Shown: one piece after another, positions 2,293 to 57,423 of the stretch | Numbering within the stretch: position 1 is the first letter of the stretch | Layout: each line of letters starts with the position of its first letter | Assembly: GCA_000999095.1 (NCBI GenBank) | Contig: LCFP01000006.1 | Coordinates: 1,823 to 65,822 of the forward strand | Source: Candidatus Gottesmanbacteria bacterium GW2011_GWA2_43_14 | Lineage (GTDB): Bacteria > Patescibacteriota > Microgenomatia > 2-02-FULL-39-11 | Length of the DNA stretch: 64,000 nucleotides | Direction: 5' to 3' | Notes under the pieces: generated by a model | The model's input: only the letters and a program-made list of their open reading frames with translations | The model's database searches: none | Told to the model about the DNA's origin: nothing | Program-made: the position numbers and the translations under genes

Positions 2293-2922
2293 ATGGCAGC
2301 AAAATTTGTTGATCTTACTTTGACTTTGGACAATAAAACACCGGTTTTTCCCGGTGATCCGCCGGTTATCGTGGAGCCAATCGCCTCGCTGGAAAAAGAC
2401 GGTTGTTCGATCCACAGCTTCAGTTTTCCCGGACACTGTTCGACCCATCTGGATGCACCGGCCCATTTTATTGCCGGTGGCCTGAAAATCGATCAAATAC
2501 CAATGGAATGGCTGGTCGGGGAGGGAATCAAGATCAGTCAGCCCGAAAATACAAAGGTTATTGAACTGTCTGGGGATCTATTCAAAAGCAAGCCGAAAAT
2601 TGTTTTGATTCAGACAAACTATATCAATACTATTCAAAGTAAATCATACTTTACCGACCACCCGTTGCTTTCCGAAAAATCGGCCAAAATTCTGATTGCG
2701 GCCGGAGTGAAAATGGTCGGCATGGACTGGCCGAGTCCTGATAAAGAGCCGTTTAATATCCATAAGATTCTCCTTGCGAAAAACGTTTTGATCCTGGAAA
2801 ACGTCTGCAATCTCGATCTTTTGCCCGCATCAGGCTTCCGCGTCCATGTCCTGCCGTTGAAAAGCCCGACGGACGGTGCCCCGGCAAGAGTAATCGCGGA
2901 AATCATGGGGGAATCACTATGA
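2293..2922 (+). CDS. cyclase-family protein (kynurenine formamidase-like)
   Basis: Carries the FPGHCSTHLDAPAHF metal-binding signature of the putative cyclase/arylformamidase family. ATGA overlap with the next gene. Confidence 0.55.
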   Translation: MAAKFVDLTLTLDNKTPVFPGDPPVIVEPIASLEKDGCSIHSFSFPGHCSTHLDAPAHFIAGGLKIDQIPMEWLVGEGIKISQPENTKVIELSGDLFKSKPKIVLIQTNYINTIQSKSYFTDHPLLSEKSAKILIAAGVKMVGMDWPSPDKEPFNIHKILLAKNVLILENVCNLDLLPASGFRVHVLPLKSPTDGAPARVIAEIMGESL

Positions 2923-43622: not shown

Positions 43623-43677
43623 CGCAGTTGAATGTTCCTGTTGACTTTCCCTCAGCTTAATTTTTTAATGGAAACAG

Positions 43678-44781
43678 ATGGATAATAAAGGTATTCCGGT
43701 CTCTGTGATGGCTTTGTTAGGTCTTTTTATTTTAATAACGGGTATCGGAGCAGGAAAAAAATTGGCTTCACAAAGTACAAGATTTTCACCCCTGGCCGTT
43801 AAGCCCAATATTTCACCGACCCCTACTCCTACACCGAAAACTTCCAACTGCAGCCAAACCTGCAATTATTCAGTTAATCCGCAGATTATTTGCCAGATAG
43901 GCTTGTCGTGTTACTATTTGGGCTTGGGTACTCCGGCACCGGGAGCTCCCGGTGTTTGTCGCAAGCCTGGCTGCCAGGAGAAATCCGATTGTATCTGCGC
44001 TCCGACCATTACAGGCATAAACCTGCCTGATTTGGTGGTGACCCAAATGAAAATCGAACTTGAAACAAGATCAGGTTGTTACAATTCTCCTCCCAATTTA
44101 CGATTAAGCGCTTATATCAAGAACATCGGAAATACCGAGGCAGGTCAATTTGTGGTTGATGTAAATGGTGATAGGAAAACAGTTACAGGCGGACTCCCGG
44201 CAGGTCAAACAGCATTTGTTTGGGGTTTTAATCTTGGTTATGGACAGCCCGCTACAGCTTTTGCAGATGCCACCTTTTTAGTCGAGGAATCCAATGAAGA
44301 CAATAATGAACTGACCGCATTGGTCCCGATACCCACACTGCCACCGGTCACTTGTACCCCTACCCCTTCAAGCGGGGCGGAAATTCCCGGTGATGCCAAC
44401 GGGGATAACAAAGTCGACGGACTCGACTATGTCATCTGGCTGAACAACTATAACAAAACAGTTACAACAGGATCAGCTGCAGGGGACTTCGACAAAAACG
44501 GCAAGGTAGACGGCATTGATTATGTGAAATGGTTAATCCAATATATTTTTATGAACCAAATTTCACCCACTCCTACAATTACTCCATCACCGAGCATATC
44601 ACTCCAGCAAACTGCCTGTGAGAACCAGGGATATATATGGAAAATCTTCAGTAACGGCTGTGTTGACAGTTGTGATTTGGCTGCCAATCCCCAGTTGAAT
44701 TGCACGCAGGTTTTGACTCCGGGTTGTGATTGCGGGGCAGACAGCTGTTGGAACGGCACAAGTTGCCAGAATAATCCGTAG
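43678..44781 (+). CDS. secreted protein with CARDB-like domain, internal dockerin-like module and Cys-rich tail
   Basis: The PT linker, PDLVVTQMKIE...NIGNTEAGQFVVDVNGD...ESNEDNNELT is CARDB-like. Then GDANGDNKVDGLDYVIWLNNY...GDFDKNGKVDGIDYVKWLIQY. Confidence 0.5.
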   Translation: MDNKGIPVSVMALLGLFILITGIGAGKKLASQSTRFSPLAVKPNISPTPTPTPKTSNCSQTCNYSVNPQIICQIGLSCYYLGLGTPAPGAPGVCRKPGCQEKSDCICAPTITGINLPDLVVTQMKIELETRSGCYNSPPNLRLSAYIKNIGNTEAGQFVVDVNGDRKTVTGGLPAGQTAFVWGFNLGYGQPATAFADATFLVEESNEDNNELTALVPIPTLPPVTCTPTPSSGAEIPGDANGDNKVDGLDYVIWLNNYNKTVTTGSAAGDFDKNGKVDGIDYVKWLIQYIFMNQISPTPTITPSPSISLQQTACENQGYIWKIFSNGCVDSCDLAANPQLNCTQVLTPGCDCGADSCWNGTSCQNNP

Positions 44782-44805
44782 AAATAACAAGCTTTTTGGC
44801 GAAAG

Positions 44806-45345
44806 TTACCTTAATTGAATTATTTCCGGCTTCAATTCTTCCACATTATCCGTAACTATCTGCATATCGTCAGGATTAAAATTCAGCCTGCCTGATGCAA
44901 AATCCCCGCCCATAAATTTAATGGAAGCTAGTTGAAACTTTCCCGAGGGTAGTTTTGATCCCGGTGAGGCACCCATGACAAGGATAACAGTGCCTTCGGT
45001 GTTGGCTTTTTCCAGGGGAGTTTCATCGATTGTGGTAGAAAGATTACCGCCGGGTTCAATCTGAGTTATGTTTAACTCTTGAGGATCAAAAGACATATTC
45101 AACCGGGCAAATGCTACTTTTTCTTTCCCGGAGTCGGCCAATACAGTGACGAGAGTTTCATTTGTCACTTCGGTTTTTTCGGCTTTAAAAGACAAAATGA
45201 CCGGTTTAAGCTCCGGATCGAAATTTGCATTTTTACTCCGGTTAAGAAATAGCAACAGAAAAACGGGCACCGCGAACAGAATCAGGATATAAAACCACGG
45301 ATGTAGTTTATTGGTTTTTACCTGAACCGGCCTTTTTTCTTTCAT
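44806..45345 (-). CDS. N-terminally membrane-anchored protein, candidate cohesin-like beta-sandwich (no dockerin)
   Basis: One TM helix and then a ~140-aa domain (KVAFARLNMSFDPQELNITQIEPGG...GTVILVMGASP...GKFQLASIKF). It is paralogous to ORF 49473 and loosely cohesin-like. Confidence 0.4.
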   Translation of the reverse strand: MKEKRPVQVKTNKLHPWFYILILFAVPVFLLLFLNRSKNANFDPELKPVILSFKAEKTEVTNETLVTVLADSGKEKVAFARLNMSFDPQELNITQIEPGGNLSTTIDETPLEKANTEGTVILVMGASPGSKLPSGKFQLASIKFMGGDFASGRLNFNPDDMQIVTDNVEELKPEIIQLR

Positions 45346-45348
45346 TTT

Positions 45349-48279
45349 TTACTTATTGTAATTATTCAGCCAGATGACATAGTCGAGACCGTCCACTTTT
45401 CCCGAGTTATTAAAGTCACCATTTACTGCTCCCGTTGCAGATTGGTTGTAATGGTTAAGCCAGGCTACGTAATCAAGACCGTCAACCTTGTCGTCCCCAT
45501 TGGCATCACCGGGTTTGCCTATTGGCGGTGTTGTCGGTGAGGGACCGGTTGTAACAGGCGGAGAAGTAGGACAGTTGGTGCCGGTGCAGGAGACCTGAAT
45601 AGTGGAGATAAGATTGTCCAGATAATATAAGTCTCCCAGCATCATCGGGGCATCCAACCGTTTGGCCAGTTCATTGTAGCTTTCCTTAAGTATCAGGGCT
45701 TTGGCCTGGAACAGGGAATGGGTTTGCTGGTAAGGTGTCGCCGCACCTTCACCCTGGACTTCCCGGTTCAAAGCCTCAAACCATAACGGTATTTCAGCAG
45801 TGTATGTATTGACAGCGTCCTGAACCTTGGTTTTGGCATTAACATTCAGATAGTCTGCCAAAGCAGGAGTCAGGTACATGAAGTTCCAGGCATGTTTGAG
45901 GGTGGCATAGTAATTTGCCGCGTTATTGGTACCTGTAGTGCCCAGTGTTTGTACCGGACTGATTTGAAAATTGTTTTTTCTCTCGGTGAGTAAAGAGTTC
46001 AAGGTTGTTTCGTAAGGTCCGTATACGGATGACGGCTGGCCGGCCAGTTTGGCCAATTCCACATATCCCTTGTAGCCGGCGATCAATCCGTTAACTGCTT
46101 GCGGCCACATACCGGGACAGGCAGGGGAACAATATGACGGACGAGCGGCGGAAAGTTTGGATTTGGCGGAATTAAAGACGGTTAAAGCCTGAGAAGGATT
46201 CTCTTTGGCATATTGCCACATGGCGTAGAATTGATATGGAGGCCAGTTCCACATATTTTCCCAGAGTTTCGAAGTTGAAGGTCCCATATTGGCAATTTTC
46301 CCGGCCATACCAGGAGGGTAGGAAAAACTGTCCCTGAATTTACCGTCCTTCCAGCCAATGTGGCTGTACTGGTAAGGCGGGAATTGGGTAAATTCGTTTT
46401 GGAGGTATGTTTTTACCTGTGTTTTTAATCCGGCAGATAAATACGGGAGCGCTCTGAGCAGATAATAATGAATGTCTCCCGGGGCATGCCAGTAGTCCAG
46501 TAGCATATCACCCAGGGACGACTGCATATGCTGATCAAAGTTTCCGCCTACACCGTATCCCGGTTTCAGGTGCCCGGCATTGACGATTTTCTGCACTTCC
46601 GTTTCCAGGATATTAACAAGCTGGGCAACAGGCGGCACTCCCGCAGGTTCACCTATGGTTGCCGGGGCGGGGGCGTCTGAGATTGAGGCCGATTTGCCTG
46701 TTCCATTTGGTGAAAAAGCGATCAAGGCGTTGCTTCTTATAGCATACATTTTGCCGTCGTAAATTGCCGGACCGGCGTTGTCCCCATGGGAGGCATAAAA
46801 ACGGCCAACTGTCGTCGGGTCGCTCCAGAAAAATTTTTGCATCTGGCTGAAATAGTTATCGGGCAGGTCGCCGCTGTTTTCACCTATTTTGCCGGTTAAA
46901 TGTCTCCACTGACGGGTTGTATCCAGTGAAGGATAAGCAGTATTTGATTTGGATATATCAGCACTGCCTATAAACCTATCGCAACAAAGATTCCAATAAA
47001 TGTATTTGCCTCCACCCGATAGGCCTGTATACTCATCCAAAGGCCAGGCCAGGCTCTGGCCGAAATGTTTGGATACAGCGAGGCTGAGGAAACTACTGCC
47101 GTATTCCCAGCCTGTAGCGCGGGAGCCGGTAAAGCTGTTGTTTTGAAACAGCGGGGTGCGGAAATACAAGATATTCTGGTTATTGTAGCCGCTGAGAACA
47201 GGCGGATAAGCGGTTTCCCAATCCTGAACTGATCTTAAAACAGGGACGGCATCGGTTTTACCGTCCTTGTCAGTATCAAAATTAACTTCCACCCCATTGG
47301 CCTGGTTCAGGACGAAAACATTTCTTTGGTGCGGATTGCTTTCAAAGTAGTTGGGAATTGTTGTAGACATAAGGGGATTTATGGAAACATCAACGGTTTT
47401 TGTCTGGGAACCGACGGTGTGAGTGACAATTTGACCGGCCGGATTATCAGAGGTAGTTCCCCCTATTATCAAATCCCTTTCGTATCCAAAATCATTGCCT
47501 CCGGTAAAATCTCCTGAAGTATTTCTCTGTTCCTCGGTGCGGGTGAAAATAACCTTGTCGCTGTAAATCACCGGCCACCAGGTGATAAAGCCCATGCCCG
47601 GAAGTTTGACTTTCCAGGACAGGGTTCCGCCTGTGGTTAAAGCGTAAGCATTGCCGTCCTGGGCACCAAAAAAGATTTTACCGCCGGAGTAGGCGGCTGA
47701 AAACAGGATCGGTCCGGGACCATCAGTTTTATATTTCCATTTTTTACTGCCGGTTGAGGCATCCAAAGCATACATGTATCCGTCACGGTTACCGGCAAAG
47801 ACAGTGTTTTCGGCAAAGAGGGGACTGGTTGAAAAACCGGCGCCTCCTTCGGTTGATACATCAAATACCCATTTTTTACTCCCGTTGGAAACATTGATGG
47901 CATGCACTTTGCGGTCCAGTCCGGAAGCATATAAAGTGCCGGCATTGTAAGTAGGAGAGTGTCCGATCGGCATCTCGGTTGCGTAAATCCATTCCTGGGT
48001 GCCGGTATCGGCATTGAAAGCGTATACTCCGCGGGCAGTCGAAACAAAGACCTTGTTTTCCGCTCCCACAGGCTGCACCCTTTGTGAAACATATGGCACC
48101 AGTCTTTTCACCCAAAGGGCTTTTAAAAGTCCCGGTGCTTCATTCGGCGTCCAGGAAGTCCGCTGTGCATTTCCTCCGGCTGTTGACCAGGGAATATCAG
48201 TTTGGGCAATAGCGGGAGACAGGGAAGTCGTCAGAAGAAGGCAGACGGTTAAAGATATTAGTAAAATTTTCACAGCCAT
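45349..48279 (-). CDS. secreted PQQ-like beta-propeller repeat protein with a C-terminal dockerin-like module
   Basis: Repeats of (V/A)YA(F/L)(N/D)xxTGxxKW at the N-terminus, a large additional domain, and C-terminal GDANGDDKVDGLDYVAWLNHYN...GDFNNSGKVDGLDYVIWLNNYNK. Confidence 0.55.
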   Translation of the reverse strand: MAVKILLISLTVCLLLTTSLSPAIAQTDIPWSTAGGNAQRTSWTPNEAPGLLKALWVKRLVPYVSQRVQPVGAENKVFVSTARGVYAFNADTGTQEWIYATEMPIGHSPTYNAGTLYASGLDRKVHAINVSNGSKKWVFDVSTEGGAGFSTSPLFAENTVFAGNRDGYMYALDASTGSKKWKYKTDGPGPILFSAAYSGGKIFFGAQDGNAYALTTGGTLSWKVKLPGMGFITWWPVIYSDKVIFTRTEEQRNTSGDFTGGNDFGYERDLIIGGTTSDNPAGQIVTHTVGSQTKTVDVSINPLMSTTIPNYFESNPHQRNVFVLNQANGVEVNFDTDKDGKTDAVPVLRSVQDWETAYPPVLSGYNNQNILYFRTPLFQNNSFTGSRATGWEYGSSFLSLAVSKHFGQSLAWPLDEYTGLSGGGKYIYWNLCCDRFIGSADISKSNTAYPSLDTTRQWRHLTGKIGENSGDLPDNYFSQMQKFFWSDPTTVGRFYASHGDNAGPAIYDGKMYAIRSNALIAFSPNGTGKSASISDAPAPATIGEPAGVPPVAQLVNILETEVQKIVNAGHLKPGYGVGGNFDQHMQSSLGDMLLDYWHAPGDIHYYLLRALPYLSAGLKTQVKTYLQNEFTQFPPYQYSHIGWKDGKFRDSFSYPPGMAGKIANMGPSTSKLWENMWNWPPYQFYAMWQYAKENPSQALTVFNSAKSKLSAARPSYCSPACPGMWPQAVNGLIAGYKGYVELAKLAGQPSSVYGPYETTLNSLLTERKNNFQISPVQTLGTTGTNNAANYYATLKHAWNFMYLTPALADYLNVNAKTKVQDAVNTYTAEIPLWFEALNREVQGEGAATPYQQTHSLFQAKALILKESYNELAKRLDAPMMLGDLYYLDNLISTIQVSCTGTNCPTSPPVTTGPSPTTPPIGKPGDANGDDKVDGLDYVAWLNHYNQSATGAVNGDFNNSGKVDGLDYVIWLNNYNK

Positions 48280-48282
48280 ATA

Positions 48283-49455
48283 TTAATAATTGCTTAACCA
48301 GATCACATAATCAAGCCCGTCCACTTTGCCGTTTCCGTCAAAATCTCCGGAAACCGAGCCATTAGTTACGGTTTTGTTATAGTTGTTGAGCCAGATGACA
48401 TAGTCGAGTCCGTCGGCTTTCCCGTCTCCATTGGCATCGCCCGGCTTGCCGGCTACCGTAACAGAAGGAGGAGAGGCAGAACCGGTGAACCAGGAAGCGG
48501 CGTAAATATTGGTTTTGAAAAATTTGAGCATGTGAGCGGCAGCTTTTTCTGCCCCTTTTCCGGCAACATTTTCAATCGGATGTGTGCCGTCCGTAGTCTC
48601 AAAATCAGAGGAAAACCAAGACAGACCTTCACTATTGGCATGGCCGTCGTCAGCCCAGAGGTAGGGACCCCAGGCCAAAACCGGACCGTTAGAATAATAG
48701 ACTTTGGCGTTTGTCCCGTTTATCTGGTCAAGAATTACCCGGCGCGCGGCAATGGCGCTTTCATAGGCATAAGGCTCATCGTTTAAATCTTTTGTGGCAT
48801 AACCGCCGTAGGTGCGGTTGGAGAAAAAAATAATTTTGGCATTGGGAAAGCGGTTGCCGATCTCATCGATAATGATTCTCTGATGTTCGGCTAAAGTTGA
48901 GACATACTCACCGCCTTCGGCCAGACAGTCAGTACAATTGCTGCCGTCCTGCGGTGCAAAATTGGCATGGAGCATCCAAATAGCCTGAACCTGGGCTGAG
49001 GTAACGCCGCTGTTGGTTAATTGGAGGGTGACATAATCCCAATTTTCGCCATTAGCCCATTTCTCAGCTACAACCGAGCCGCGGGCGCCGTTGACGATCA
49101 CTACCTTGGACGAGACACCGTTATCATTGGCCGCCTGCCCGATAAAAGCATCGGATTTTCTCCTGGTATTGGACATGCCCATGGTCAGAAGCACAATTTT
49201 ACCGGAAGAACTTGGATTGCCGGAGCCGTCCCTGGAGGTAATTTGGGACCGGGCTTCCGACAGTTTCTGGGCGTGGGCTGCGGGAGGATTATTTTGATAA
49301 TTGCCGTACAGGCCGCCGGTTTCATTCTGGTATTTCTGGCTGCCCGTCATATCCATAAGAGGTATGCAGTCGCTGGTGCAAATATTAGCGTAAACCCTGG
49401 GAGGAATTAAAAAAAAAGAGCCGAAGGCCACCAGAATGGCAAGAATAATTGTCAC
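48283..49455 (-). CDS. secreted SGNH/GDSL-like hydrolase (putative carbohydrate esterase) with a C-terminal dockerin-like module
   Basis: ..LLTMGMSNT (block I-like) ... TDGTHPIEN (block V DGxHP). Dockerin GDANGDGKADGLDYVIWLNNY...GDFDGNGKVDGLDYVIWLSNY. Paralog of ORF 52186. GTG start. Confidence 0.5.
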   Translation of the reverse strand: MTIILAILVAFGSFFLIPPRVYANICTSDCIPLMDMTGSQKYQNETGGLYGNYQNNPPAAHAQKLSEARSQITSRDGSGNPSSSGKIVLLTMGMSNTRRKSDAFIGQAANDNGVSSKVVIVNGARGSVVAEKWANGENWDYVTLQLTNSGVTSAQVQAIWMLHANFAPQDGSNCTDCLAEGGEYVSTLAEHQRIIIDEIGNRFPNAKIIFFSNRTYGGYATKDLNDEPYAYESAIAARRVILDQINGTNAKVYYSNGPVLAWGPYLWADDGHANSEGLSWFSSDFETTDGTHPIENVAGKGAEKAAAHMLKFFKTNIYAASWFTGSASPPSVTVAGKPGDANGDGKADGLDYVIWLNNYNKTVTNGSVSGDFDGNGKVDGLDYVIWLSNY

Positions 49456-49472
49456 GGAATGTTCCTGTTATT

Positions 49473-50276
49473 TCAGCCCTTGGCTGCCCTGCGCCAAATT
49501 TCAAAATCGATCAGGTCAACTTTACCATCCTGATTGAGATCGGCAATTTTGCTTGTCAGTGACTTTTGATATTCAGCTTTCCATTGATTATAGCAGTCAA
49601 TCGAGCCTACCACGTTGCAGGCTTGAGGGTTGCCCGTAGGAGGTGTCAATGTCGGAGGAGTATTAGTCGGAGGTAGCGTCGGATTGGTCCCGCCGTTGTT
49701 TATGGCGGCGCTTGCAGCGTTTACGGTTAATTCCGTACCCCCCGCGCTGACGATTTGCATATCGGAAGCAAGGAATGTGAGCGTTGAGGTATCCGTGTTA
49801 TTGGAGCTTACCGAAGCAAGAGTGAAAGAAGCAAATTCGAAGGAAGAAGCCGGTTGAGTATCCGTGGGGGAAGCGGCAATCACAATAACGGCTTTGCCGC
49901 TTGTATTGGCATTGGCCATGGTCGTTTTCTCAACCACAGTTGATAGGCTGGCTGTGGTGGTGATTTCGGAATCAAATTTAACTTTCGTTTTGTCAAAAAC
50001 GATAACCACCCGGGCAAAAGCAACAGCCTGCCCATGGGGGTCAAGCATGATTTTGACATTTGCATTCGGCGGCAAATTGAAAGAGGCAGGAGAAAATGCG
50101 GCGTCAACCGAGCCGGTTAACTGTGCCTTCGAGAAGTAATTGATAGTATTCTGGACCGCAATAACAGTTATGGGCAGAATCAGTAGAATTAAGATAAAGG
50201 CTAATGGATTCCCTATGGATTTGTTGTCCAGGGTGCGGTAAATTTTTTTGATTTTTCTGGCAGCCGGTTTTATCAT
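49473..50276 (-). CDS. N-terminally membrane-anchored cohesin-like candidate with a single C-terminal dockerin-like half-repeat
   Basis: TM helix, then VAFARVVIVFDKTKVKFDSE...GKAVIVIAASP...FEFASFTLA...MQIVSAGG, paralogous to ORF 44806. A PT linker, then ADLNQDGKVDLIDFEIW. ATG at 50276. Confidence 0.4.
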   Translation of the reverse strand: MIKPAARKIKKIYRTLDNKSIGNPLAFILILLILPITVIAVQNTINYFSKAQLTGSVDAAFSPASFNLPPNANVKIMLDPHGQAVAFARVVIVFDKTKVKFDSEITTTASLSTVVEKTTMANANTSGKAVIVIAASPTDTQPASSFEFASFTLASVSSNNTDTSTLTFLASDMQIVSAGGTELTVNAASAAINNGGTNPTLPPTNTPPTLTPPTGNPQACNVVGSIDCYNQWKAEYQKSLTSKIADLNQDGKVDLIDFEIWRRAAKG

Positions 50277-50323
50277 CTCCTTCAATCAAAGCATAAAACA
50301 GGGTCGCTAATCAAGAAGAATAT

Positions 50324-52132
50324 TCATTTGTTATAATTATTTAACCAAATAACGTAGTCCAGTCCGTCCGCTTTGCCGTTTTTATCAAAGTCACCGCCGG
50401 CCGCTCCCGTGGTTACAGTTTTATTGTAGTTATTCAGCCAGACAACATAATCCAGGCCGTCAACCTTTCCGTCTCCATTGGCATCTCCTGCTTTGCCCGC
50501 CGGGGAAGTAGGAGTCGGGGATTTGGTGGCAGGAGGTGTCGGGGAAGCAGTGACCGATAAAGGCATGGTTAGCTCGTAAAGCCTGCCGTCAGTAAGACCG
50601 AGGTTATCCTCAACGGTCAAAGTTACAAAATATTTACCGTTAGCTGAATAAGTATGTGATACTTCTTTACTGTTTGAACTGGTTCCATCATCAAAATTCC
50701 AGGTGTATTTGCTGACAGTACCGATCCTGTCAGATGAGGCTCCGGCATTAAAATTGACGGTCAAGGCATTGATGCCGGGACTTACGGAAAAATTGGCCAC
50801 GGGAGGCTGGTTCCCGGGTTGGTTAAGGCTGTTTTGGGCTGCGGTCAGTTCATTTGAAAGAAAGCTGACCAGTTGGGGGTGCTGTGAGGACAAATTATTT
50901 TTTTCACCGATATCCGAAGCTAAATTAAAGAGCATCTGGGGATTTGAAACCATACCGCATTCAGCCATCCAGGTTTGGCCGCCTGAGCTTTGCGTCATCA
51001 GTTTCCATTTTCCGGCAATGACGGCTTTATTTTTTGACAGCCAGGTGAAAGCGATATCGTCATCAGGACGCTCGCCGTTGCCGAAGATAACCGATGACAA
51101 ATCCTGGCCGTCGATGGCACGGTCCATGGGAAGGGCAGCTCCGGTCAATTTTGCGAAAGTCGGATATAGGTCAAATATTGCCCCGATTTTATCAACTGTC
51201 CTGCCGGAAGATATAAATCCAGGCCAATTGGCGATAAACGGCACCCTGATGCCTCCTTCGTAATAAGTTCCTTTACCGCAATACAAAGGACCGGCGGAGC
51301 CGCCCTGCGGGGCATTGGCTATAGCCGGCCCGTTATCGCTGGCAAAAACAATCAGGGTGTTGTTCCTGAGACCAAGCTTGTCGATTTCCGCCACAACCTG
51401 GCCGACACCCCAATCCATTTCTTCGACAACATCGCCGTAAGTCCCGTCAAGAGATTTGCCGGCAAAATCAGGGTGGGCAACAAGGGGAGCATGAGGAGCG
51501 GTATATGCTAAATAGAGAAAAAACGGTATGTTTTTGTTTTGATTGATAAAATTCACCGCCTCCGAGGTAAAATTATGAGTCAGCATCGACAGGTCAGCCG
51601 GATTTTCAATTACCTCCGTACCTCTCATCAGAGGAATCTGCCCTCCGTTATAATTGTTCGAATACCAGACGCCGTACCAGTAATCAAAACCATGAAGAGT
51701 GGGGTTGTATTGGGTTTGATGACCAAGGTGCCATTTGCCGATTATGCCCGTTTTATAGCTTTTGCTTTTTAAAAGTTCCGCTATGGTAATTTCCGATGCA
51801 GCCAGGCCTTTTTGGGAAGAGGTACCGGAAATGGAGATGATTTCATCGATGCCTACCCGTCTTGAATAGCGGCCGGTTACAAAAGCTGCCCTGGTCGGGC
51901 AGCAGACACCTGAGTTTGCATAGAATTGGCTGAATTTGCTGCCTCCCTGGGCCAGTTTGTCGATATTGGGAGTTTTTATCTTTGTTGAACCGTAACTACC
52001 CAAATCACCGTAGCCAAGATCATCGGCCAGGATAAAGACGATATTCGGTTTAACAGGAAGTGTCTGGGCGGAGATACCGGCGGGTACAGCCAGCGGAAAA
52101 AGAAAAAAAAATATAAAGACGAATTTTTTCAT
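50324..52132 (-). CDS. secreted Cys-type sulfatase with PKD domain and C-terminal dockerin-like module
   Basis: PNIVFILADDLGYGDLGSYGS...CCPTRAAFVTGRY is the sulfatase N-terminal signature with the C-x-P-x-R formylglycine site. A PKD-like segment (YTWNFDDGTSS...GKYFVTLTVED). C-terminal GDANGDGKVDGLDYVVWLNNY...GDFDKNGKADGLDYVIWLNNYNK. Confidence 0.75.
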   Translation of the reverse strand: MKKFVFIFFFLFPLAVPAGISAQTLPVKPNIVFILADDLGYGDLGSYGSTKIKTPNIDKLAQGGSKFSQFYANSGVCCPTRAAFVTGRYSRRVGIDEIISISGTSSQKGLAASEITIAELLKSKSYKTGIIGKWHLGHQTQYNPTLHGFDYWYGVWYSNNYNGGQIPLMRGTEVIENPADLSMLTHNFTSEAVNFINQNKNIPFFLYLAYTAPHAPLVAHPDFAGKSLDGTYGDVVEEMDWGVGQVVAEIDKLGLRNNTLIVFASDNGPAIANAPQGGSAGPLYCGKGTYYEGGIRVPFIANWPGFISSGRTVDKIGAIFDLYPTFAKLTGAALPMDRAIDGQDLSSVIFGNGERPDDDIAFTWLSKNKAVIAGKWKLMTQSSGGQTWMAECGMVSNPQMLFNLASDIGEKNNLSSQHPQLVSFLSNELTAAQNSLNQPGNQPPVANFSVSPGINALTVNFNAGASSDRIGTVSKYTWNFDDGTSSNSKEVSHTYSANGKYFVTLTVEDNLGLTDGRLYELTMPLSVTASPTPPATKSPTPTSPAGKAGDANGDGKVDGLDYVVWLNNYNKTVTTGAAGGDFDKNGKADGLDYVIWLNNYNK

Positions 52133-52185
52133 GATGAATTCAGTATAGAATCCAATCAGGCAAATTTACAAATAGGACAGACGGA

Positions 52186-53370
52186 TTATTTATTGTAATT
52201 GACCAGCCAGATGACATAGTCCAGGCCGTCAACTTTGCCGTTGCCGTCAAAATCTCCCGAAGCTGAGCCGTTGGATACGGTTTTATTATAGTTATTGAGC
52301 CAGACTACATAGTCGAGACCGTCAACCTTGTTGTCTCCGTTGGCGTCACCCGGTTTTTGCCCTGATGGGGGCGTCGGTGTTTTGCTTGGTGAGACATTCA
52401 TTGTCGGAGGCGGTGCAGATCCCGTAAACCAGGAAGCGGCCAAAGGGCTGGTTTTAAAGAAATTCATTAACATCTGAGCCACCTTGAGTTCTCCTGAGGC
52501 TGATGGATGTCCGCCGTCATCCTGGAAATCTTCGCATTTCCAGACAAGGCCGTCGCTGCGCGGATTGAGACCGTCTGCCCAGATATAAGGGGCCCAAACA
52601 ATAACCGGACTGTTGTTATAGTCAATTTCTGAAGTGCCTGTCGGATTGGTGATACCCATTTGATCCTGGATCAACCAGCGGAAAGCAAAACCGCTTTCAT
52701 AGGCAAGAGGTTCAATACTGGAGTGACCGGAAGCATATCCGGCATAAATGCGGCTGGATACATAGATAATTTTAATTGCAGGGTAGTCTGTTTTTAATTT
52801 TTTGACCATATAAACAAGATTAGATTTAAGCAGCATTGCATCTTCAAGTCCGGGGGTTTCAGCGGTATCCCTGTTTGCCTGTTTCAGCCAAACGACCTGA
52901 ACCTGTTCTTTTGAGAGACCGGCTGAGGAAATCCGGCTTGAAAGGACGCTCCAAGGATTGGTGCCCGGTTCCGGAGTTACCCATCTGTCGGCACTTTGGC
53001 CGCTTTGGGCGCCGTTGACGGTGACTATTGAATTTTGAACTCCAGGGTCGGAGTCGACCAATTCCTGAAAAACAATGAATTCCTGGGAAACATTGGACAT
53101 TCCCACAGATATAAAGCCGATTTTTCCGTTTACCGGTTTGACCTGTCCGGCAGCTATTTGAGCCATTTGCAGGTGGGCAAGGGGAACGGAGTTGCTGCCG
53201 TTTACATATAAACCGCCTGACTGCCCTTTGTATAACTGGTTGGCGCCCATATCAATAAGGGGAATAAAACCGACAGAGGTATTGGCGCAATTTTTCGCTG
53301 CCAGAAGAGGATTAACTGAAATTTGCATAAGAAGCAGAAATAACAAGACTGAGGTCAATTTTTTTGACAT
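52186..53370 (-). CDS. secreted SGNH/GDSL-like hydrolase with a C-terminal dockerin-like module
   Basis: ..FISVGMSNV ... DDGGHPSASG (DGxHP) ... dockerin GDANGDNKVDGLDYVVWLNNY...GDFDGNGKVDGLDYVIWLVNYNK. Confidence 0.5.
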   Translation of the reverse strand: MSKKLTSVLLFLLLMQISVNPLLAAKNCANTSVGFIPLIDMGANQLYKGQSGGLYVNGSNSVPLAHLQMAQIAAGQVKPVNGKIGFISVGMSNVSQEFIVFQELVDSDPGVQNSIVTVNGAQSGQSADRWVTPEPGTNPWSVLSSRISSAGLSKEQVQVVWLKQANRDTAETPGLEDAMLLKSNLVYMVKKLKTDYPAIKIIYVSSRIYAGYASGHSSIEPLAYESGFAFRWLIQDQMGITNPTGTSEIDYNNSPVIVWAPYIWADGLNPRSDGLVWKCEDFQDDGGHPSASGELKVAQMLMNFFKTSPLAASWFTGSAPPPTMNVSPSKTPTPPSGQKPGDANGDNKVDGLDYVVWLNNYNKTVSNGSASGDFDGNGKVDGLDYVIWLVNYNK

Positions 53371-53374
53371 AAGT

Positions 53375-54697
53375 TTATTTGTTATAATTATTCAGCCAGA
53401 TAACGTAATCGAGTCCGTCAACTTTACCGTTTTTATCAAAGTCCCCGCCGGCTGCTCCCGTAGTTATGGATTTATTGTAGTTATTCAGCCAGATGACATA
53501 ATCCAGCCCGTCAACCTTGCCGTCCCCGTTGGCGTCCCCCGGTTTTGCGAGATCTCCGGTTATAACTGGTATGGTCGGGCTGAGTGTGATTTTTGTCGGA
53601 GTGACCTGGGCCGGAGTGCTGGTTGCCGTGCCCGGTCCGGCTGATAAGGTGCCTTTGATTGTGGACAACTTATCAGCGCCGGTATAAACAAAGACAAAAT
53701 TTTTACCGTCGGCGGATGTCCATTTATTGGAAAAATTCCAGAAGACTGTTTTGGCTTCCGCCCCCTGAAGACCGACAGACCAGGCATTGGCAAAAAGGAC
53801 TGTTTTCCAGGGATTTTGTACGTTATTCGGATCTCCCCAGGGCGCCGGAGCCTCATAAATACCGATATATCCGCCGGTTCCCCTTTTTATCTGCTGGGTG
53901 ACCAGAAAATACTTCTTAAGCCCTGCATTATATACGGCGCTGGTTCTCATGACTCCGTTGGCGACGTCGGTAAAGACCGGTTTTTTGAGGCTGACATTAC
54001 TGTTCCATTGGGGCACACCACCGGAGTAGCCGGTGAAGAACTGGTAGTTTGCACGGTTCATGGGATCGCTTTTGGGTACGCGCATAAGGTATATATACCC
54101 GGGTTTCTGTACGTCCCAGGTGCTGTTCTGGATACCTGGGGCATAGATATAAAGATATGACGGATCGCCTCCGGCATAGTCTTTGCCGTATTGGAGGAAG
54201 GTAGGACAGAAAAAATTGCCGCCGTTGGACTGGTCGAATTGCCAGGAAGCCTGAGCCCATTGCGTACCGTGGGTGGTTGATTTATACAGTTTCTGGAAAC
54301 TGTAGGCTGAGTTGTCCGATGCATTTCCGCATACCCACATATAAAGTATACCTCCGACAGAAATAATGCCGTAACTTTTGCCGTTGCCCGTCCATAAGTT
54401 TTGGCCCGTAAAATTGTCTGCTCCTCCGGATATTTTGGCTACGCCCTGGCTGTACTTGGCGCTGTCTCCGAAGCCTCCGCCGTCTCCGAAATTGGTGTAT
54501 TGGGCGTCATCGTCTGCCCAGGTCACCGGCCAGTTGTCACTGCCGCTGGTTATGGAATAGGATTTTTTACTGGCGGTATCAAAACTTACGGAAATTGAAC
54601 TTTGGGCGTAGGGGGCAGCGGCAAAGACGGGGACCGAATATAAATTGAGGGAGACAGTGGTCAAAAAAAATCCCGTCAACAACAGGAGCAGCTTCAT
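53375..54697 (-). CDS. secreted BNR/Asp-box-type beta-propeller protein (sialidase/glycosidase-like) with a C-terminal dockerin-like module
   Basis: WADDDAQYTNFGDGGGFG and an Asp-box-like STTHGTQW. Paralog of ORF 60081. Dockerin GDANGDGKVDGLDYVIWLNNY...GDFDKNGKVDGLDYVIWLNNYNK. Confidence 0.45.
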   Translation of the reverse strand: MKLLLLLTGFFLTTVSLNLYSVPVFAAAPYAQSSISVSFDTASKKSYSITSGSDNWPVTWADDDAQYTNFGDGGGFGDSAKYSQGVAKISGGADNFTGQNLWTGNGKSYGIISVGGILYMWVCGNASDNSAYSFQKLYKSTTHGTQWAQASWQFDQSNGGNFFCPTFLQYGKDYAGGDPSYLYIYAPGIQNSTWDVQKPGYIYLMRVPKSDPMNRANYQFFTGYSGGVPQWNSNVSLKKPVFTDVANGVMRTSAVYNAGLKKYFLVTQQIKRGTGGYIGIYEAPAPWGDPNNVQNPWKTVLFANAWSVGLQGAEAKTVFWNFSNKWTSADGKNFVFVYTGADKLSTIKGTLSAGPGTATSTPAQVTPTKITLSPTIPVITGDLAKPGDANGDGKVDGLDYVIWLNNYNKSITTGAAGGDFDKNGKVDGLDYVIWLNNYNK

Positions 54698-54745
54698 ATA
54701 ATTACTTTATGTGAGCGGGAATAAATGATCAAGAAGGAAACATGC

Positions 54746-56056
54746 CTATATGTTGTAATTGTTCAGCCAGATAACGTAGTCCAGCCCGTCTACTTTCCCG
54801 GAATTATTGAAATCACCACTTCCTGCTCCCGCAACCTGCTGGTTGTAGTGGTTAAGCCAGATGACATAATCCAGTCCGTCAACTTTAGTATCTCCGTTGG
54901 CATCTCCCTGTTTACCGATCGTCCCTACATTTATGGTGACTGTGGCTGTGTTGGAAAAAGCAAGGCCGTCATTTACCCTCCATTTAAAAGTATCGTTGCC
55001 CGAATAGCCCGAGACAGGTGTATAAACCCAATCATTGTCGGTTGCGGCACCGTTTATAGAGCCGTGAAGTGGCAGTTGAGTAACCGAGTATATATATGGA
55101 CCCGGTCCGTCAGGATCAGCAAAGGAAAAGATTATCGAGAGGGGTGTCTCTACCGCAGTAGAGTAGGTGCTGTTTTGAACAGTCGGAGGATGGTTGACTC
55201 CGGTTGGTTCTGCAGTTGGCGTCGGTCCTGTATTGCCGCACGAATTGCCGGCCGGCCATTCTATTTTTGAAGGAGTGCCTCCATTGCCAAAGCCGGCGGC
55301 GCAGGCGTTATCAAGGGCGTAATTGGCCAATGATATGGAAACAGATTCGTCAGGTCTATGGTACTCTCCAACGACAACAGGTTTTCCCAGGCTTGTCCTG
55401 GCGTTATTGACTTTTGTTGCTACTTGAGGACCTGTGGTAGATTCCGTGGGAGGATTGGTTTGCAGAACCATATAATCGCACCAGCTTTGCGAGCAGTATT
55501 CCCATTTATTTGGCGTCTGGTGTGCTGCCAACGGTTTATTTGTCAAACTGTCCATGTGATTTCCTATCTCCTGAATTTCGCTTGCCGTCCAATATTCATT
55601 CGATTCCAGACCAACCACATAACTGTTGGTTTTGGCGTCAATTTGGGGAATAAATGCGCTTAAATCAGTTTTTATTGCCGCAACAGTTTTACCTTTCCAG
55701 GTTCCGGTATCACTGGTAAGCCAGACTACCGCTTTGATACCGGCAGTGTTTAATTCCGTCAATAAAGAATTAAATCCCGATGGGTTTGGATAATAATTGA
55801 AAGCGCTGGCAGTGACGGACAGGTAAGCGTGGGTATAGCCTCTAGATTTAAGTTGAGAGATATAAGCCGAACGCTGGCTGGCAGATGCGGTCGGGAAATA
55901 GGTTGTGCCGCAATTGCTGCCGCAGGCCGGCAGGGATAGAAAATCAGTGGCATGGGGAAGAACTCCGGCAGTGCTTTCAGCTTTAACCGGCTTGACGGAA
56001 ATCATGCTTATAATCAGGAAGAATGAACAAATAATCAGGCCAGCGTAATTTTTCAT
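54746..56056 (-). CDS. secreted clan GH-A-like TIM-barrel glycoside hydrolase with an Ig/cadherin-like domain and a C-terminal dockerin-like module
   Basis: VVGLESNEYW (NE acid/base-like) and PVVVGEYH (GE nucleophile-like). A beta-sandwich segment (YSVTQLPLHGSINGAATDNDWVYTP..TVTINV). Dockerin GDANGDTKVDGLDYVIWLNHY...GDFNNSGKVDGLDYVIWLNNYNI. Confidence 0.45.
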   Translation of the reverse strand: MKNYAGLIICSFFLIISMISVKPVKAESTAGVLPHATDFLSLPACGSNCGTTYFPTASASQRSAYISQLKSRGYTHAYLSVTASAFNYYPNPSGFNSLLTELNTAGIKAVVWLTSDTGTWKGKTVAAIKTDLSAFIPQIDAKTNSYVVGLESNEYWTASEIQEIGNHMDSLTNKPLAAHQTPNKWEYCSQSWCDYMVLQTNPPTESTTGPQVATKVNNARTSLGKPVVVGEYHRPDESVSISLANYALDNACAAGFGNGGTPSKIEWPAGNSCGNTGPTPTAEPTGVNHPPTVQNSTYSTAVETPLSIIFSFADPDGPGPYIYSVTQLPLHGSINGAATDNDWVYTPVSGYSGNDTFKWRVNDGLAFSNTATVTINVGTIGKQGDANGDTKVDGLDYVIWLNHYNQQVAGAGSGDFNNSGKVDGLDYVIWLNNYNI

Positions 56057-56079
56057 ATTAATTGATCATAACATTGAGA

Positions 56080-57423
56080 TTATTTGTTGTAGTTATTCAA
56101 CCAGATAACATAATCCAGACCATCTACCTTGCCTGAATTATTGAAGTCACCACTTCCTGCTCCCGTTGCCGACTGGTTGTAGTGGTTAAGCCAGACAACA
56201 TAATCCAGCCCGTCAACTTTGCCGTCCCCGTTGGCATCACCTGGCTTTCCGGATACTATTGGGGTAGGTGTTTTCGTTGGCAAAATGGAAGGACCACCCT
56301 CAAATAAAGGATTTGAACCGGTTATATTAGCCTCAATTATGTGGGGTATCCCTCCACTCGTCTTTGGGGAATCGTCGACACCAACGCCAGCAAAAACCAC
56401 ACCGTTTTTCTGGTTCCAAAGAATATATGTTCCTCCCGCCCCTGCGCCCCAAGCCCAGGATGTCGAGGCATTTTTATAAAAATCCCCAGCGGAATTGGTC
56501 CATGTCAAATAACCATAAGGAGATTCAGGAAAGGTCGCTTTAGTTAAAAAGCTGATTACCCCGTCGTTACAACCATCGTAATTTACCAACATTCCTGCGG
56601 TTTTTTTAGTTTCCTGTTCTTCAACAAACCATTGGGGAACCAGTACTGTGTTGTTCCATCTTCCTCGTGCTAGCATTAAAAGACCCAATCTACCCATGTC
56701 TTCCAAATCCAGCACCAACCTAATGCCGTCGGTATTTAGCTGCGTATTCCAGCCCTGCATTCCGATAGCTGAGAAATATGCCTGATTAAGCACTGTTTTA
56801 TAATTTGAGGCAGTATAGCTGCCACCAGGACTGCCCCAAGCTTTAAATAATGCCTCATTCAAATTCTTTAAATTGAGGTCAGAGTAAGTCCACATCTGGC
56901 CGGGTGCATAGTCAATGCTGTCCCCACAGCCCGGATAATCAAAGCCTGCAGACTGTGTAATTACGTGCCACCAAGTCGCGTCTTTATCCTTACCTGTTAA
57001 ATTTGTTTGATAAAAACTAATTTTTTGAGTTTTAAAGTCGGGAATTTTCCCCTGATTGACTGCTGCACCGACGGTCAGGGCATGCCAGGTTTTCCGCAAC
57101 GATTTGACCTCGGAAGTCTGGTTAAAATCTCCAGATACATGCACAAGATAGCCATGACGCCACAATGCCCATCGCGTCGCTTTACCAGACAGATCAGTTA
57201 TTATATTACCGCTAAGATTAACCGTCTGGGGTGTTTGTTGATTTTGTTGGGACAATGTTTGGCCGGGAGGAGGGAAATAATAACCTGCAGCATTTATTCC
57301 TTTGGGCAAGAAAAGGGTCAAAAAAAATAACAACGACAAATATCTTTTAGTCGAACGTTCCACACCTAAATTCGCACAGACTCGCCTAACCATCTCGAGA
57401 CAAAAAAATTTTTTACTTACCAT
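56080..57423 (-). CDS. secreted beta-lactamase-fold serine hydrolase (esterase/PBP-like) with a C-terminal dockerin-like module
   Basis: An SLRK S-x-x-K motif within ..SEVKSLRKTWHALTVGAAV.. Dockerin GDANGDGKVDGLDYVVWLNHY...GDFNNSGKVDGLDYVIWLNNYNK. The 5' end overlaps the next gene by 11 nt, so an alternative ATG at 57393 is possible. Confidence 0.45.
   Translation of the reverse strand: MVSKKFFCLEMVRRVCANLGVERSTKRYLSLLFFLTLFLPKGINAAGYYFPPPGQTLSQQNQQTPQTVNLSGNIITDLSGKATRWALWRHGYLVHVSGDFNQTSEVKSLRKTWHALTVGAAVNQGKIPDFKTQKISFYQTNLTGKDKDATWWHVITQSAGFDYPGCGDSIDYAPGQMWTYSDLNLKNLNEALFKAWGSPGGSYTASNYKTVLNQAYFSAIGMQGWNTQLNTDGIRLVLDLEDMGRLGLLMLARGRWNNTVLVPQWFVEEQETKKTAGMLVNYDGCNDGVISFLTKATFPESPYGYLTWTNSAGDFYKNASTSWAWGAGAGGTYILWNQKNGVVFAGVGVDDSPKTSGGIPHIIEANITGSNPLFEGGPSILPTKTPTPIVSGKPGDANGDGKVDGLDYVVWLNHYNQSATGAGSGDFNNSGKVDGLDYVIWLNNYNK

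Follow-up and report, generated by a model that had tools for sequence, protein, structure and literature searches.

A dockerin-bearing S1 sulfatase and predicted single-cohesin membrane anchors in a gene cluster of Candidatus Gottesmanbacteria

Introduction

In the cellulosomes of Clostridia and Ruminococcus, and in the ‘mucinolysome’ of Limousia, a duplicated type I dockerin is carried by many secreted hydrolases. The same arrangement, together with putative partners of the cohesin fold and clustering of the genes in the genome, is seen at the Candidatus Gottesmanbacteria locus described here. In contrast to the cellulosomes, however, the ~76 kb of scaffold that we covered has no multi-cohesin scaffoldin, only single-cohesin proteins with an N-terminal transmembrane (TM) anchor, and the locus has no clear cellulase set. 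For the mucin-degrading cohesin-dockerin system of Limousia, no sulfatase that bears a dockerin was reported, whereas in the Gottesmanbacteria cluster a sulfatase is found among the cargo. In their use of a single cohesin to tether dockerin proteins, the anchors predicted here resemble OlpA/OlpC of C. thermocellum and the Archaeoglobus fulgidus protein of PDB entry 2XDH.

That Microgenomates possess cohesin-dockerin modules has been published before. Proteins with cohesins and dockerins have been noted, and detected as expressed, in Ca. Shapirobacterales and Ca. Roizmanbacterium, which have the CPR supergroup and a groundwater habitat in common with Gottesmanbacteria, and their authors read the modules as cellulosomes that degrade cellulose. 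In the accessible part of those reports, neither a sulfatase cargo nor a TM-anchored single-cohesin family is described, and both are features of the present locus.

The described proteins closest in fold to the sulfatase are human ARSA (S1_1, 1AUK), STS (S1_3, 1P49) and GALNS (S1_5, 4FDI) and the Pseudoalteromonas carrageenan sulfatase PsS1_19B (S1_19, 6PRM). The C-x-P-x-R signature and the metal-binding and catalytic residues are likewise common to all of them. The four differ from the Gottesmanbacteria protein in having neither the C-terminal PKD domain nor the dockerin.

Results and discussion

The window that we analyzed is a stretch of 64,000 nucleotides which, judged from the GW2011 name, appears to derive from a groundwater metagenome-assembled genome (MAG). 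The list of open reading frames (ORFs) places a gene with an ATG start at 50324..52132 on the minus strand; its 602-aa product is identical to GenBank KKS97696.1 (UniRef100_A0A0G1FRQ2) from a Ca. Gottesmanbacteria MAG. In agreement with this origin, the MreB encoded in the window matches KKS97680.1 of Ca. Gottesmanbacteria at 100% identity. An initial annotation had called the 602-aa product a Cys-type, formylglycine-dependent sulfatase that carries a PKD domain plus a dockerin. This is borne out by the Pfam matches to Sulfatase PF00884 (residues 29–332, E 8.3e-61), PKD_4 (residues 441–515, E 2.9e-20) and Dockerin_1 (residues 548–595, E 4.4e-5, 24.0 bits where the cutoff is 22.9), as well as by the motifs it had quoted, ADDLGYGD (residue 36) and CCPTRAAFVTGR (residue 77).

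The AF2 model (pLDDT 88.7, pTM 0.82) resolves three modules with a disordered linker between them, all encoded on the minus strand. A putative Sec-type signal peptide, MKKFVFIFFFLFPLAVPAGISAQ, was read by eye in residues 1–23 (52064..52132), a segment of low pLDDT. The S1 catalytic domain follows at residues 29–440 (50813..52048), assigned from PF00884, from PDB matches to STS, GALNS and ARSA and from its ARSA fold, and consists of an N-terminal alkaline-phosphatase-like subdomain and a C-terminal subdomain. Within it lies the formylglycine motif C77-C-P-T-R81 (51890..51904), located by the homolog alignment and by the pairing of C77 with Cys69 of ARSA. The PKD domain (residues 441–523; 50564..50812) is modelled as a β-sandwich with pLDDT ~95 and is found in all close homologs, including those free of a dockerin. 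A Pro/Thr-rich linker (residues 524–547; 50492..50563), with pLDDT <50 at residues 527–544, leads to the dockerin at residues 548–602 (50327..50491), which was defined by Pfam, motif and AF2 and has two segments, DANGDGKVDGLDYVVWLNNY and DFDKNGKADGLDYVIWLNNY, each made of a Ca loop and a helix. These loops, D550-A-N-G-D-G-K-V-D-G-L-D and D581-F-D-K-N-G-K-A-D-G-L-D, precede modelled helices at residues 559–568 and 590–599. A duplicated segment of ~22 residues, with the Ca ligand D/N at positions 1, 3, 5, 9 and 12 and a helix after it, is the hallmark of a type I dockerin, and the sulfatase dockerin has this pattern.

The extended signature of the sulfatase, G-V-C77-C-P-T-R-A-A-F-V-T-G, fits (C/S)-x-(P/A)-x-R, and C77, P79 and R81 are invariant in an alignment of 40 homologs. 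The set D37, D38, C77, R81, K133, H135, H214, D266, N267 and K287 aligns with the catalytic stretches of ARSA, where we take the counterparts to be D29, D30, C69, R73, K123, H125, H229, D281, N282 and K302, and it too is invariant across the 40 homologs. More widely, the signature is kept in 118 of the 120 homolog clusters listed, with Cys in 148 matches versus Ser in 3. Loss of the Cys in orthologs had been named by the initial annotation as grounds for giving up its assignment; instead, the catalytic Cys is kept in all close homologs. From its sequence, then, the protein is an ordinary family S1 sulfatase of the Cys type with an intact catalytic apparatus, predicted to be secreted and active.

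We compared the sulfatase with S1 proteins of assigned subfamily. Sequence scores were 288 bits for STS, 251 for GALNS, 242 for ARSA and 232–233 for S1_15 and S1_19. Against the PDB, the best fold match of the AF2 model was ARSA (E 9e-45, TM 0.80), and the closest folds as a group, ARSA, STS, GALNS and PsS1_19B, gave TM 0.75–0.82 on the target. Identity to S1_1, S1_3, S1_5 and S1_19 structures was ~34% alike, and because these four subfamilies differ in substrate, specificity is not transferable from any of them. An NCBIfam search of the sulfatase reached no equivalog cutoff. The GenBank product name ‘GalNAc-6-sulfatase’ (S1_5) was rejected as over-specific, since GALNS/S1_5 is not clearly the nearest. 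The mucins, glycosaminoglycans and algal polysaccharides that had been put forward as substrates likewise find no support in a subfamily-equidistant enzyme from what appears to be a groundwater MAG.

In a scan of genome-representative contigs, the nearest genome-resolved relatives share 41–47% identity with the sulfatase and belong to other phyla (Pontiellaceae, Gemmatimonadetes, Rhodothermales and Bryobacterales). A dockerin is present in only two of the 120 homolog clusters listed, namely the window protein (with a strain variant, P0001) and P0002, against more than 100 Gottesmanbacteria-like MreB clusters. The gene is sporadic in its lineage, in keeping with the earlier remark that sulfatases are rare in reduced genomes. 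Since no sulfatase of the Limousia system bears a dockerin either, dockerin-borne sulfatases appear to be uncommon. A literature search for sulfatases in Gottesmanbacteria or CPR returned nothing specific.

The sporadic distribution, the identity of the relatives and the confinement of the dockerin form to these clusters, among those listed, would also be expected if the gene had been acquired laterally and were now under relaxed selection or decaying, contributing little in the lineage. P0001 could be taken in the same sense, with its catalytic His135 replaced by Pro and a 4-aa deletion within the signal peptide; it is, however, a single 2.9-kb contig, in which H135P might stem from faulty assembly or sequencing. 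The scaffold itself recurs in the metagenomes ERZ28564302, JGI 3300025308 and SRR29904086. Against decay, the same 602-aa ORF is intact and identical in three independent assemblies, all catalytic residues are in place, the GC content is that of the neighbouring genes, and the dockerin fused to the enzyme is the lineage's own and has been maintained. We consider decay very improbable.

A Cys-type sulfatase calls for a maturase, and the initial annotation had stressed that neither a formylglycine-generating enzyme (FGE) nor an anaerobic sulfatase-maturating enzyme (anSME) was visible in the window. Consistent with this, a Pfam search of window ORFs of at least 150 aa found no Radical_SAM, SPASM or FGE-sulfatase domain, and none of these was found in the scaffold from ~24.9 to 100.6 kb (~76 kb of the 100.6-kb scaffold), where the extension past the window holds only arginine-biosynthesis genes and further dockerin genes. 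A CxxxCxxC and FGE-motif regex run on all six-frame ORFs returned only a Cys-rich repeat protein (10212–12545), which was rejected as not radical-SAM. At three homolog loci (L003, L033 and L034), too, no linked maturase was found.

Maturase genes typically lie apart from the genes of the sulfatases, and radical-SAM enzymes of the anSME type are widespread among anaerobes. In E. coli, a third, unidentified route of Cys-type formylglycine (FGly) maturation is on record, and an unmodified Cys-type choline sulfatase has been reported to keep residual activity and to remain a multiple-turnover enzyme. Because the ~76 kb are a fraction of the genome, the genes are usually unlinked and a third route exists, the absence of a maturase says little, and the weight that had been placed on it is not warranted. 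The same observations could be read as a genome devoid of both FGE and anSME, with Cys77 either matured through a third system, of the kind recorded for E. coli, or left unmodified, so that the enzyme turns over at a low rate. The empty ~76 kb and the two documented precedents speak for such a genome; the minor share of the genome that those ~76 kb make up, the usual lack of linkage and the prevalence of anSME in anaerobes speak against it, as does the finding that FGly signature and catalytic residues are strictly invariant, as expected of a normally matured enzyme. Overall, we regard it as distinctly unlikely, and continue to favour a maturase encoded elsewhere. Should a complete genome nevertheless prove to encode none of the known maturases, it would offer a compact setting in which to hunt for the third formylglycine-forming system.

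The sulfatase gene lies in a cluster of dockerin genes. Besides the sulfatase, 12 window ORFs pass the Pfam Dockerin_1 gathering score, and with motif evidence the window part of the cluster, at 42267..63725, comprises 14 dockerin-bearing ORFs. Their products include GH-like, β-lactamase-fold, DUF4185, PQQ β-propeller, cadherin/Big_9, CBM96, CARDB and unannotated proteins. The cluster runs at least 10 kb past the window, so that in the ~76 kb of scaffold covered it exceeds 33 kb and encodes more than 20 dockerin-tagged secreted proteins. Twelve genes from 44806 to 61334 are co-directional, with gaps of at most 129 bp; promoter and terminator scans were at background (38 versus 26.7±6.3 and 27 versus 23.1±5.3, respectively). 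Relative to one another, 11 C-terminal dockerins show 70–93% protein identity and ~73% DNA identity, while the catalytic parts are mostly unrelated. Dockerins this alike in protein, yet only ~73% identical in DNA and attached to unrelated catalytic parts, indicate that a common partner has kept them under selection, and not that gene conversion has recently homogenised them.

Candidate partners are encoded within the cluster. Directly downstream of the sulfatase, on the minus strand at 49473..50276, lies UV73_C0006G0049, a ‘hypothetical’ gene for a 267-aa protein that we examined by AF2, Foldseek and family alignment. Its layout is an N-terminal TM anchor, a cohesin-fold domain (residues 56–194; window 49695–50111), a P/T linker and, at the C-terminus, a Cys pair with a single dockerin-like Ca loop. 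The model has pLDDT 82.9 overall and >90 in the domain, and every one of the 50 highest-ranked PDB entries that Foldseek listed for it is a cohesin (TM 0.77–0.80, best E 7e-10), with 3UL4, 4DH2 and 2XDH among them. Many of these cohesin matches were solved as complexes with dockerins. A paralog of 179 aa (44806..45345, minus strand), also a TM-anchored single cohesin, closes the co-directional run and is 32% identical to the 267-aa protein (E 8e-15). It has a sub-threshold Pfam Cohesin match (E 0.018, 15.6 bits versus a cutoff of 24.1), and the 267-aa protein has no match to Pfam Cohesin PF00963. Since neither protein reaches the Pfam threshold, the assignment rests on predicted structure, from which we are confident that these two unannotated genes encode a cohesin fold. 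Compared with OlpA/OlpC and 2XDH, the 267-aa anchor has the extra C-terminal Cys pair and Ca loop, and in place of the SLH domains used by single-cohesin anchors such as OlpA/OlpC it has an N-terminal TM helix.

We therefore return to the earlier proposal that the dockerin places the sulfatase in the same complex as the cluster's glycosidases and esterases. The presence of two cohesin-fold genes in the cluster, one of them next to the sulfatase, agrees with a cohesin-dockerin partnership, and the membrane-anchored product of that next gene is likely to be the partner of the dockerin, as predicted. The proposal of a shared complex fares less well: one cohesin and one membrane anchor per protein argue for individual tethering at the surface and against a single scaffolded complex. 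Tethering to single-cohesin anchors, with binding as predicted here, thus fits better than a multi-enzyme scaffold.

A different account would leave the sulfatase active and its dockerin unpaired with the neighbouring cohesins, the module serving in Ca binding or in attachment to envelope or glycan, or finding its partner elsewhere. It draws on the fold-level, sub-threshold nature of the cohesin assignment, on the ratio of two cohesins to more than 20 dockerins in ~76 kb, and on the orthologs P0002 and P0003, which have no cohesin-like neighbour. It is harder to square with cohesin genes that sit inside the co-directional dockerin cluster, with the strong conservation of dockerin protein sequence across unrelated enzymes, and with structural matches drawn wholly, among the top 50 listed, from cohesins often complexed with dockerins. 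We therefore think an unpaired dockerin fairly unlikely. Many non-cellulosomal dockerins elsewhere have no matching cohesins. Small genes upstream of the sulfatase orthologs were also considered as cohesins and were rejected, being members of another small family.

The model that we favour, an FGly-matured S1 sulfatase tethered through its dockerin to neighbouring cohesin anchors, is moderately probable as a whole. The pre-protein would be directed to export by its Sec signal peptide, and Cys77 in C-C-P-T-R would be oxidised to formylglycine before or during that step. The maturase would be encoded elsewhere in the genome and would most plausibly be a radical-SAM anSME, given that an anaerobic, fermentative way of life is generally assumed for CPR bacteria. 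Once exported, the enzyme would bind through its C-terminal dockerin, in a Ca-dependent manner, to the single cohesin of the 49473–50276 protein or of its 44806–45345 paralog, and would thereby be kept on the cell surface beside more than 20 further hydrolases and binding proteins that likewise carry dockerins. There, the FGly-hydrate, with the metal held by D37/D38/D266/N267 and catalysis by K133/H135/H214/K287, would remove sulfate esters from what is probably a glycan substrate. A bolder composite, in which a surface coat of more than 20 dockerin-tagged hydrolases on single-cohesin anchors includes a laterally acquired sulfatase, and the genome has a third FGly system in place of FGE and anSME, is hardly to be expected.

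The sulfatase itself adds little, being a textbook S1 enzyme that was already deposited and named; what is newly recognised is the predicted cohesin fold in two ‘hypothetical’ genes within a dockerin cluster. A CPR bacterium, for which a small genome is expected, spends more than 33 kb on dockerin-tagged secreted enzymes, and the cluster offers a concrete, testable model for how degradative enzymes may be held on the CPR cell surface. With more than 20 dockerins to be served by two single cohesins, the stoichiometry is poor, unless the anchors are abundant or more cohesins are encoded elsewhere. In the family alignment, some homologs of the 267-aa protein from elsewhere bear two cohesins or a CBM96.

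The sulfatase is a dockerin-bearing member of family S1

An ATG-initiated gene at window positions 50324-52132 (- strand) encodes a protein of 602 amino acids, in which Pfam resolves a Sulfatase domain (PF00884, residues 29-332, E 8.3e-61), a PKD_4 domain (residues 441-515, E 2.9e-20) and a Dockerin_1 module (residues 548-595, 24.0 bits; gathering score 22.9). The sulfatase motifs ADDLGYGD and C77-C-P-T-R81-AAFVTGR begin at residues 36 and 77, and the N-terminus, MKKFVFIFFFLFPLAVPAGISAQ, reads by eye as a Sec-type signal peptide. The initial annotation of a dockerin-tagged, Cys-type sulfatase with a PKD domain is thereby borne out. An AF2 model based on an alignment of 40 homologs was confident (pLDDT 88.7, pTM 0.82) and resolved residues 30-440 as the catalytic domain, 445-523 as a β-sandwich, 527-544 as a disordered Pro/Thr linker and the C-terminus as a module of two helices (559-568 and 590-599). 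This C-terminus consists of two near-identical segments, DANGDGKVDGLDYVVWLNNY and DFDKNGKADGLDYVIWLNNY, each with a loop carrying Asp/Asn at positions 1, 3, 5, 9 and 12 followed by a helix; it is the canonical duplicated F-hand of type I dockerins.

The protein is identical to GenBank KKS97696.1 (UniRef100_A0A0G1FRQ2), and the same 602-aa ORF occurs in three independent assemblies (ENA ERZ28564302, JGI 3300025308 and Logan SRR29904086). The window belongs to a 100,603-bp scaffold; its MreB is 100% identical to KKS97680.1 (Candidatus Gottesmanbacteria; Patescibacteria group, Microgenomates group), the next MreB relatives are all Gottesmanbacteria, and the "GW2011" name of the MAG suggests a groundwater origin. 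By every sequence and structural criterion tested, the window enzyme is a family S1 sulfatase. Among solved structures its fold is nearest to those of ARSA (E 9e-45, TM 0.80), STS, GALNS and PsS1_19B, a carrageenan sulfatase, each at ~34% identity; SulfAtlas assigns ARSA to S1_1, STS to S1_3, GALNS to S1_5 and carrageenan 4S sulfatases to S1_19. Since these subfamilies score alike (STS 288 bits, GALNS 251, ARSA 242, S1_19 ~232) and no NCBIfam equivalog cutoff was approached, the GenBank product name "N-acetylgalactosamine-6-sulfatase" was rejected as over-specific.

A promoter-like TTGTAA-N18-TATACT (52142-52171, - strand) stops 9 nt short of the ATG, with no evident Shine-Dalgarno sequence in the gap. 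The gene could thus be transcribed from a promoter of its own into a near-leaderless mRNA, this being a consensus match of a kind that occurs at background frequency. The region's strongest terminator-like hairpin, GCTGCCC-GACCA-GGGCAGC followed by TTTTGT (51885-51903, - strand), is formed by the codons of the catalytic motif C-C-P-T-R-A-A-F, a placement that is probably coincidental because terminator-like sites are at background frequency.

Conservation of the catalytic residues

The window protein was aligned with the sequences of human ARSA, GALNS and STS. D37, D38, C77, R81, K133, H135, H214, D266, N267 and K287 lie opposite the catalytic set of ARSA, namely D29, D30, C69 (the formylglycine), R73, K123, H125, H229, D281, N282 and K302. 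All ten, together with S158, were invariant in the 40-sequence alignment. The motifs C-[CT]-P-T-R, GKWHLGH, SDNGP and CGKG are kept in nine of the ten closest homologs (P0002-P0014), and the tenth, the strain variant P0001, departs from them only at H135. More broadly, the sulfatase signature is retained in 118 of the 120 homolog clusters listed; of its matches, 148 have Cys and 3 have Ser. Loss of the catalytic Cys from orthologs, which would have spoken against the initial annotation, is therefore not what the alignments show.

Only two changes separate P0001 from the window sulfatase: a deletion of FFFL shortens the signal peptide by 4 aa, and H135P replaces a catalytic His. It derives from a single 2.9-kb ENA contig (2,872 bp) and all other assemblies hold the intact version; a sequencing error or a minor population variant is possible.

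Absence of a linked maturase

A Pfam scan of every window ORF of at least 150 aa found no Radical_SAM, SPASM or FGE-sulfatase domain, and extension outward from the window genes found no maturase at scaffold positions ~24.9-100.6 kb, nor was one adjacent to the sulfatase homologs at loci L003, L033 and L034. The earlier observation that the window lacks a maturase therefore stands, but this absence is uninformative, because the ~76 kb covers just part of the genome and maturase genes are usually unlinked to sulfatase genes. Bacteroides thetaiotaomicron, for example, has one anaerobic sulfatase-maturating enzyme (anSME) for all of its ~28 sulfatases. For a presumably anaerobic groundwater CPR bacterium, the oxygen-independent anSME route would be expected. 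Published work adds that Cys-type sulfatases of E. coli are matured by a third, still unidentified system, and that a Cys-type choline sulfatase left unmodified retains slow turnover.

Matches to CxxxCxxC in the window were confined to six Cys-rich tandem repeats, 'CP(E/D)DCP(S/F)CP', of an unannotated 777-aa ORF without a Pfam match (10212-12545, + strand). The gene is called at 866 aa in the ENA scaffold (L029) and at 777 aa in a second assembly (L028), a difference that points to a varying number of repeats or to collapse during assembly.

Cohesin-fold proteins are encoded beside the sulfatase

The chief value of the locus lies in its unannotated cohesin-fold neighbours, rather than in the sulfatase or the missing maturase. 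Directly downstream of the sulfatase gene, positions 49473-50276 encode a 267-aa protein (UV73_C0006G0049, annotated "hypothetical") with no Pfam match except a sub-threshold Dockerin_1 in its C-terminal segment (E 0.015). It comprises an N-terminal hydrophobic helix, a domain of ~140 aa, a P/T linker, and a C-terminal Cys pair with a lone dockerin-like loop, DLNQDGKVDLIDFEIW. The AF2 model (19-sequence family alignment) had a pLDDT of 82.9, exceeding 90 over residues 56-194, and all 50 of the top 50 Foldseek matches listed from the PDB were cohesins, among them CaCohA2 (6KGD, E 7e-10, TM 0.77), CipA (1AOH and 1OHZ), OlpA, OlpC and the A. fulgidus cohesin 2XDH. On the strength of this model, the 267-aa protein is a candidate dockerin partner of the sulfatase. 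A 179-aa paralog (44806-45345; 32% identity, E 8e-15), whose Pfam Cohesin match is sub-threshold (E 0.018), is the last gene of the same co-directional run as the sulfatase; across the ~76 kb covered, a domain profile detected no copy beyond these two. Elsewhere, some homologs contain a second cohesin, or a CBM96 at the N-terminus.

The initial annotation had placed the sulfatase in one complex with glycosidases and esterases. The candidate cohesin-fold partner next to it supports this idea in part. With one cohesin per membrane-anchored protein, the modelled architecture would fit individual surface tethering better than a multi-enzyme scaffoldin. Cohesin and dockerin proteins are already known in Microgenomates: those of Ca. 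Shapirobacterales were detected as expressed, and Ca. Roizmanbacterium is cited for them too, so the window system is not unprecedented. A dockerin-borne sulfatase seems uncommon: according to a 2026 study of a mucin-degrading cohesin-dockerin system, none of the sulfatases there bears a dockerin, unlike the sulfatase of the window cluster.

At the C-terminus of the 267-aa protein (49473-49560) and of homologs in alignment A1, there is a conserved Cys pair (C..x..CYNQW) together with one dockerin-like Ca loop and helix (ADLNxDGxVDLxDFExWRR). This end of the cohesin-fold proteins looks like a truncated half-dockerin, through which the anchors could bind other cohesins or one another.

A cluster of dockerin proteins

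Fourteen window ORFs contain a dockerin module, and the cluster runs at least 10 kb past the window, for a total of >20 dockerin ORFs over >33 kb. Eleven C-terminal dockerins share 70-93% protein identity (mean 78%) but only ~73% DNA identity, and the catalytic parts of these eleven proteins are unrelated, save three paralog pairs (28-35% identity). From these sequence comparisons, the pattern indicates protein-level selection for a common partner and not recent gene conversion.

Other arrangements also occur. The CBM96 (42267-43622, +) and CARDB (43678-44781, +) ORFs are divergently oriented, with an internal rather than C-terminal dockerin followed by Cys-rich, Pro/Thr tails of ~75-145 aa. 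Beyond the window's right end are a 439-aa protein with an N-terminal dockerin directly after the signal peptide (contig L031, 5022-6341) and a 77-aa ORF consisting solely of signal peptide and dockerin (contig L035, 2505-2738). The dockerin proteins flanking the sulfatase/cohesin pair (48283-49455 and 52186-53370, both - strand) are paralogs (35% identity, E 1.5e-58) with no Pfam catalytic domain; a 'G(M)SN' motif that recalls SGNH/GDSL esterases is present in both.

Origin of the sulfatase and its genomic surroundings

A search of 5.8 billion proteins returned, among the 120 clusters listed, few close relatives at 52-58% identity, each with Sulfatase and PKD domains; only the window sulfatase, its strain variant and P0002 have a dockerin. 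The non-dockerin sulfatase-PKD homologs (P0004-P0010 and P0014) end in a short conserved hydrophobic tail of the "FLPLI" type, '(Y/L)FLPL(I/V)...', which may be a C-terminal sorting signal not recognised so far, and at least one lies on a high-GC contig (L033, GC 0.61) beside gyrA. The nearest genome-resolved relatives (41-47% identity) come from sulfatase-rich groups: Pontiellaceae, Gemmatimonadetes, Rhodothermales, Bryobacterales, Verrucomicrobia and Planctomycetes. Gottesmanbacteria are themselves well sampled, with >100 MreB clusters at >78% identity. The simplest reading would be that the sulfatase-PKD unit was laterally acquired and the lineage's own dockerin fused on afterwards; the GC content of the gene is in line with its neighbours, and the acquisition is therefore not recent.

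A small gene lies ahead of each of the low-GC orthologs P0002 and P0003 (L003 402-908, 168 aa, and L034 402-941, 179 aa), and none of this type precedes the window sulfatase. The two products appear related by eye (N-terminal hydrophobic segment, 'P..W..S', C-terminal 'IL(S/T)(S/T)FR(L/F)'); they were considered as cohesins and rejected, and belong to another small family.

The sulfatase shares its cluster with a GH5/GH39-like protein, beta-lactamase-fold proteins, DUF4185 proteins, PQQ-type beta-propellers, cadherin/Big_9 proteins and CBM96, a set that suggests complex glycans or cell envelopes as targets. They specify none of the substrates proposed initially (mucins, glycosaminoglycans, algal polysaccharides), which were guesses without support here. 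Elsewhere in the window, an 899-aa arginyl-tRNA synthetase (2919-5618, +) carries, N-terminally of its ArgRS N-terminal domain, a fused B3_4 domain, which is familiar chiefly from PheRS beta subunits. Its gene adjoins argG, argH and OTCase genes, more arginine biosynthesis than expected of a CPR genome.
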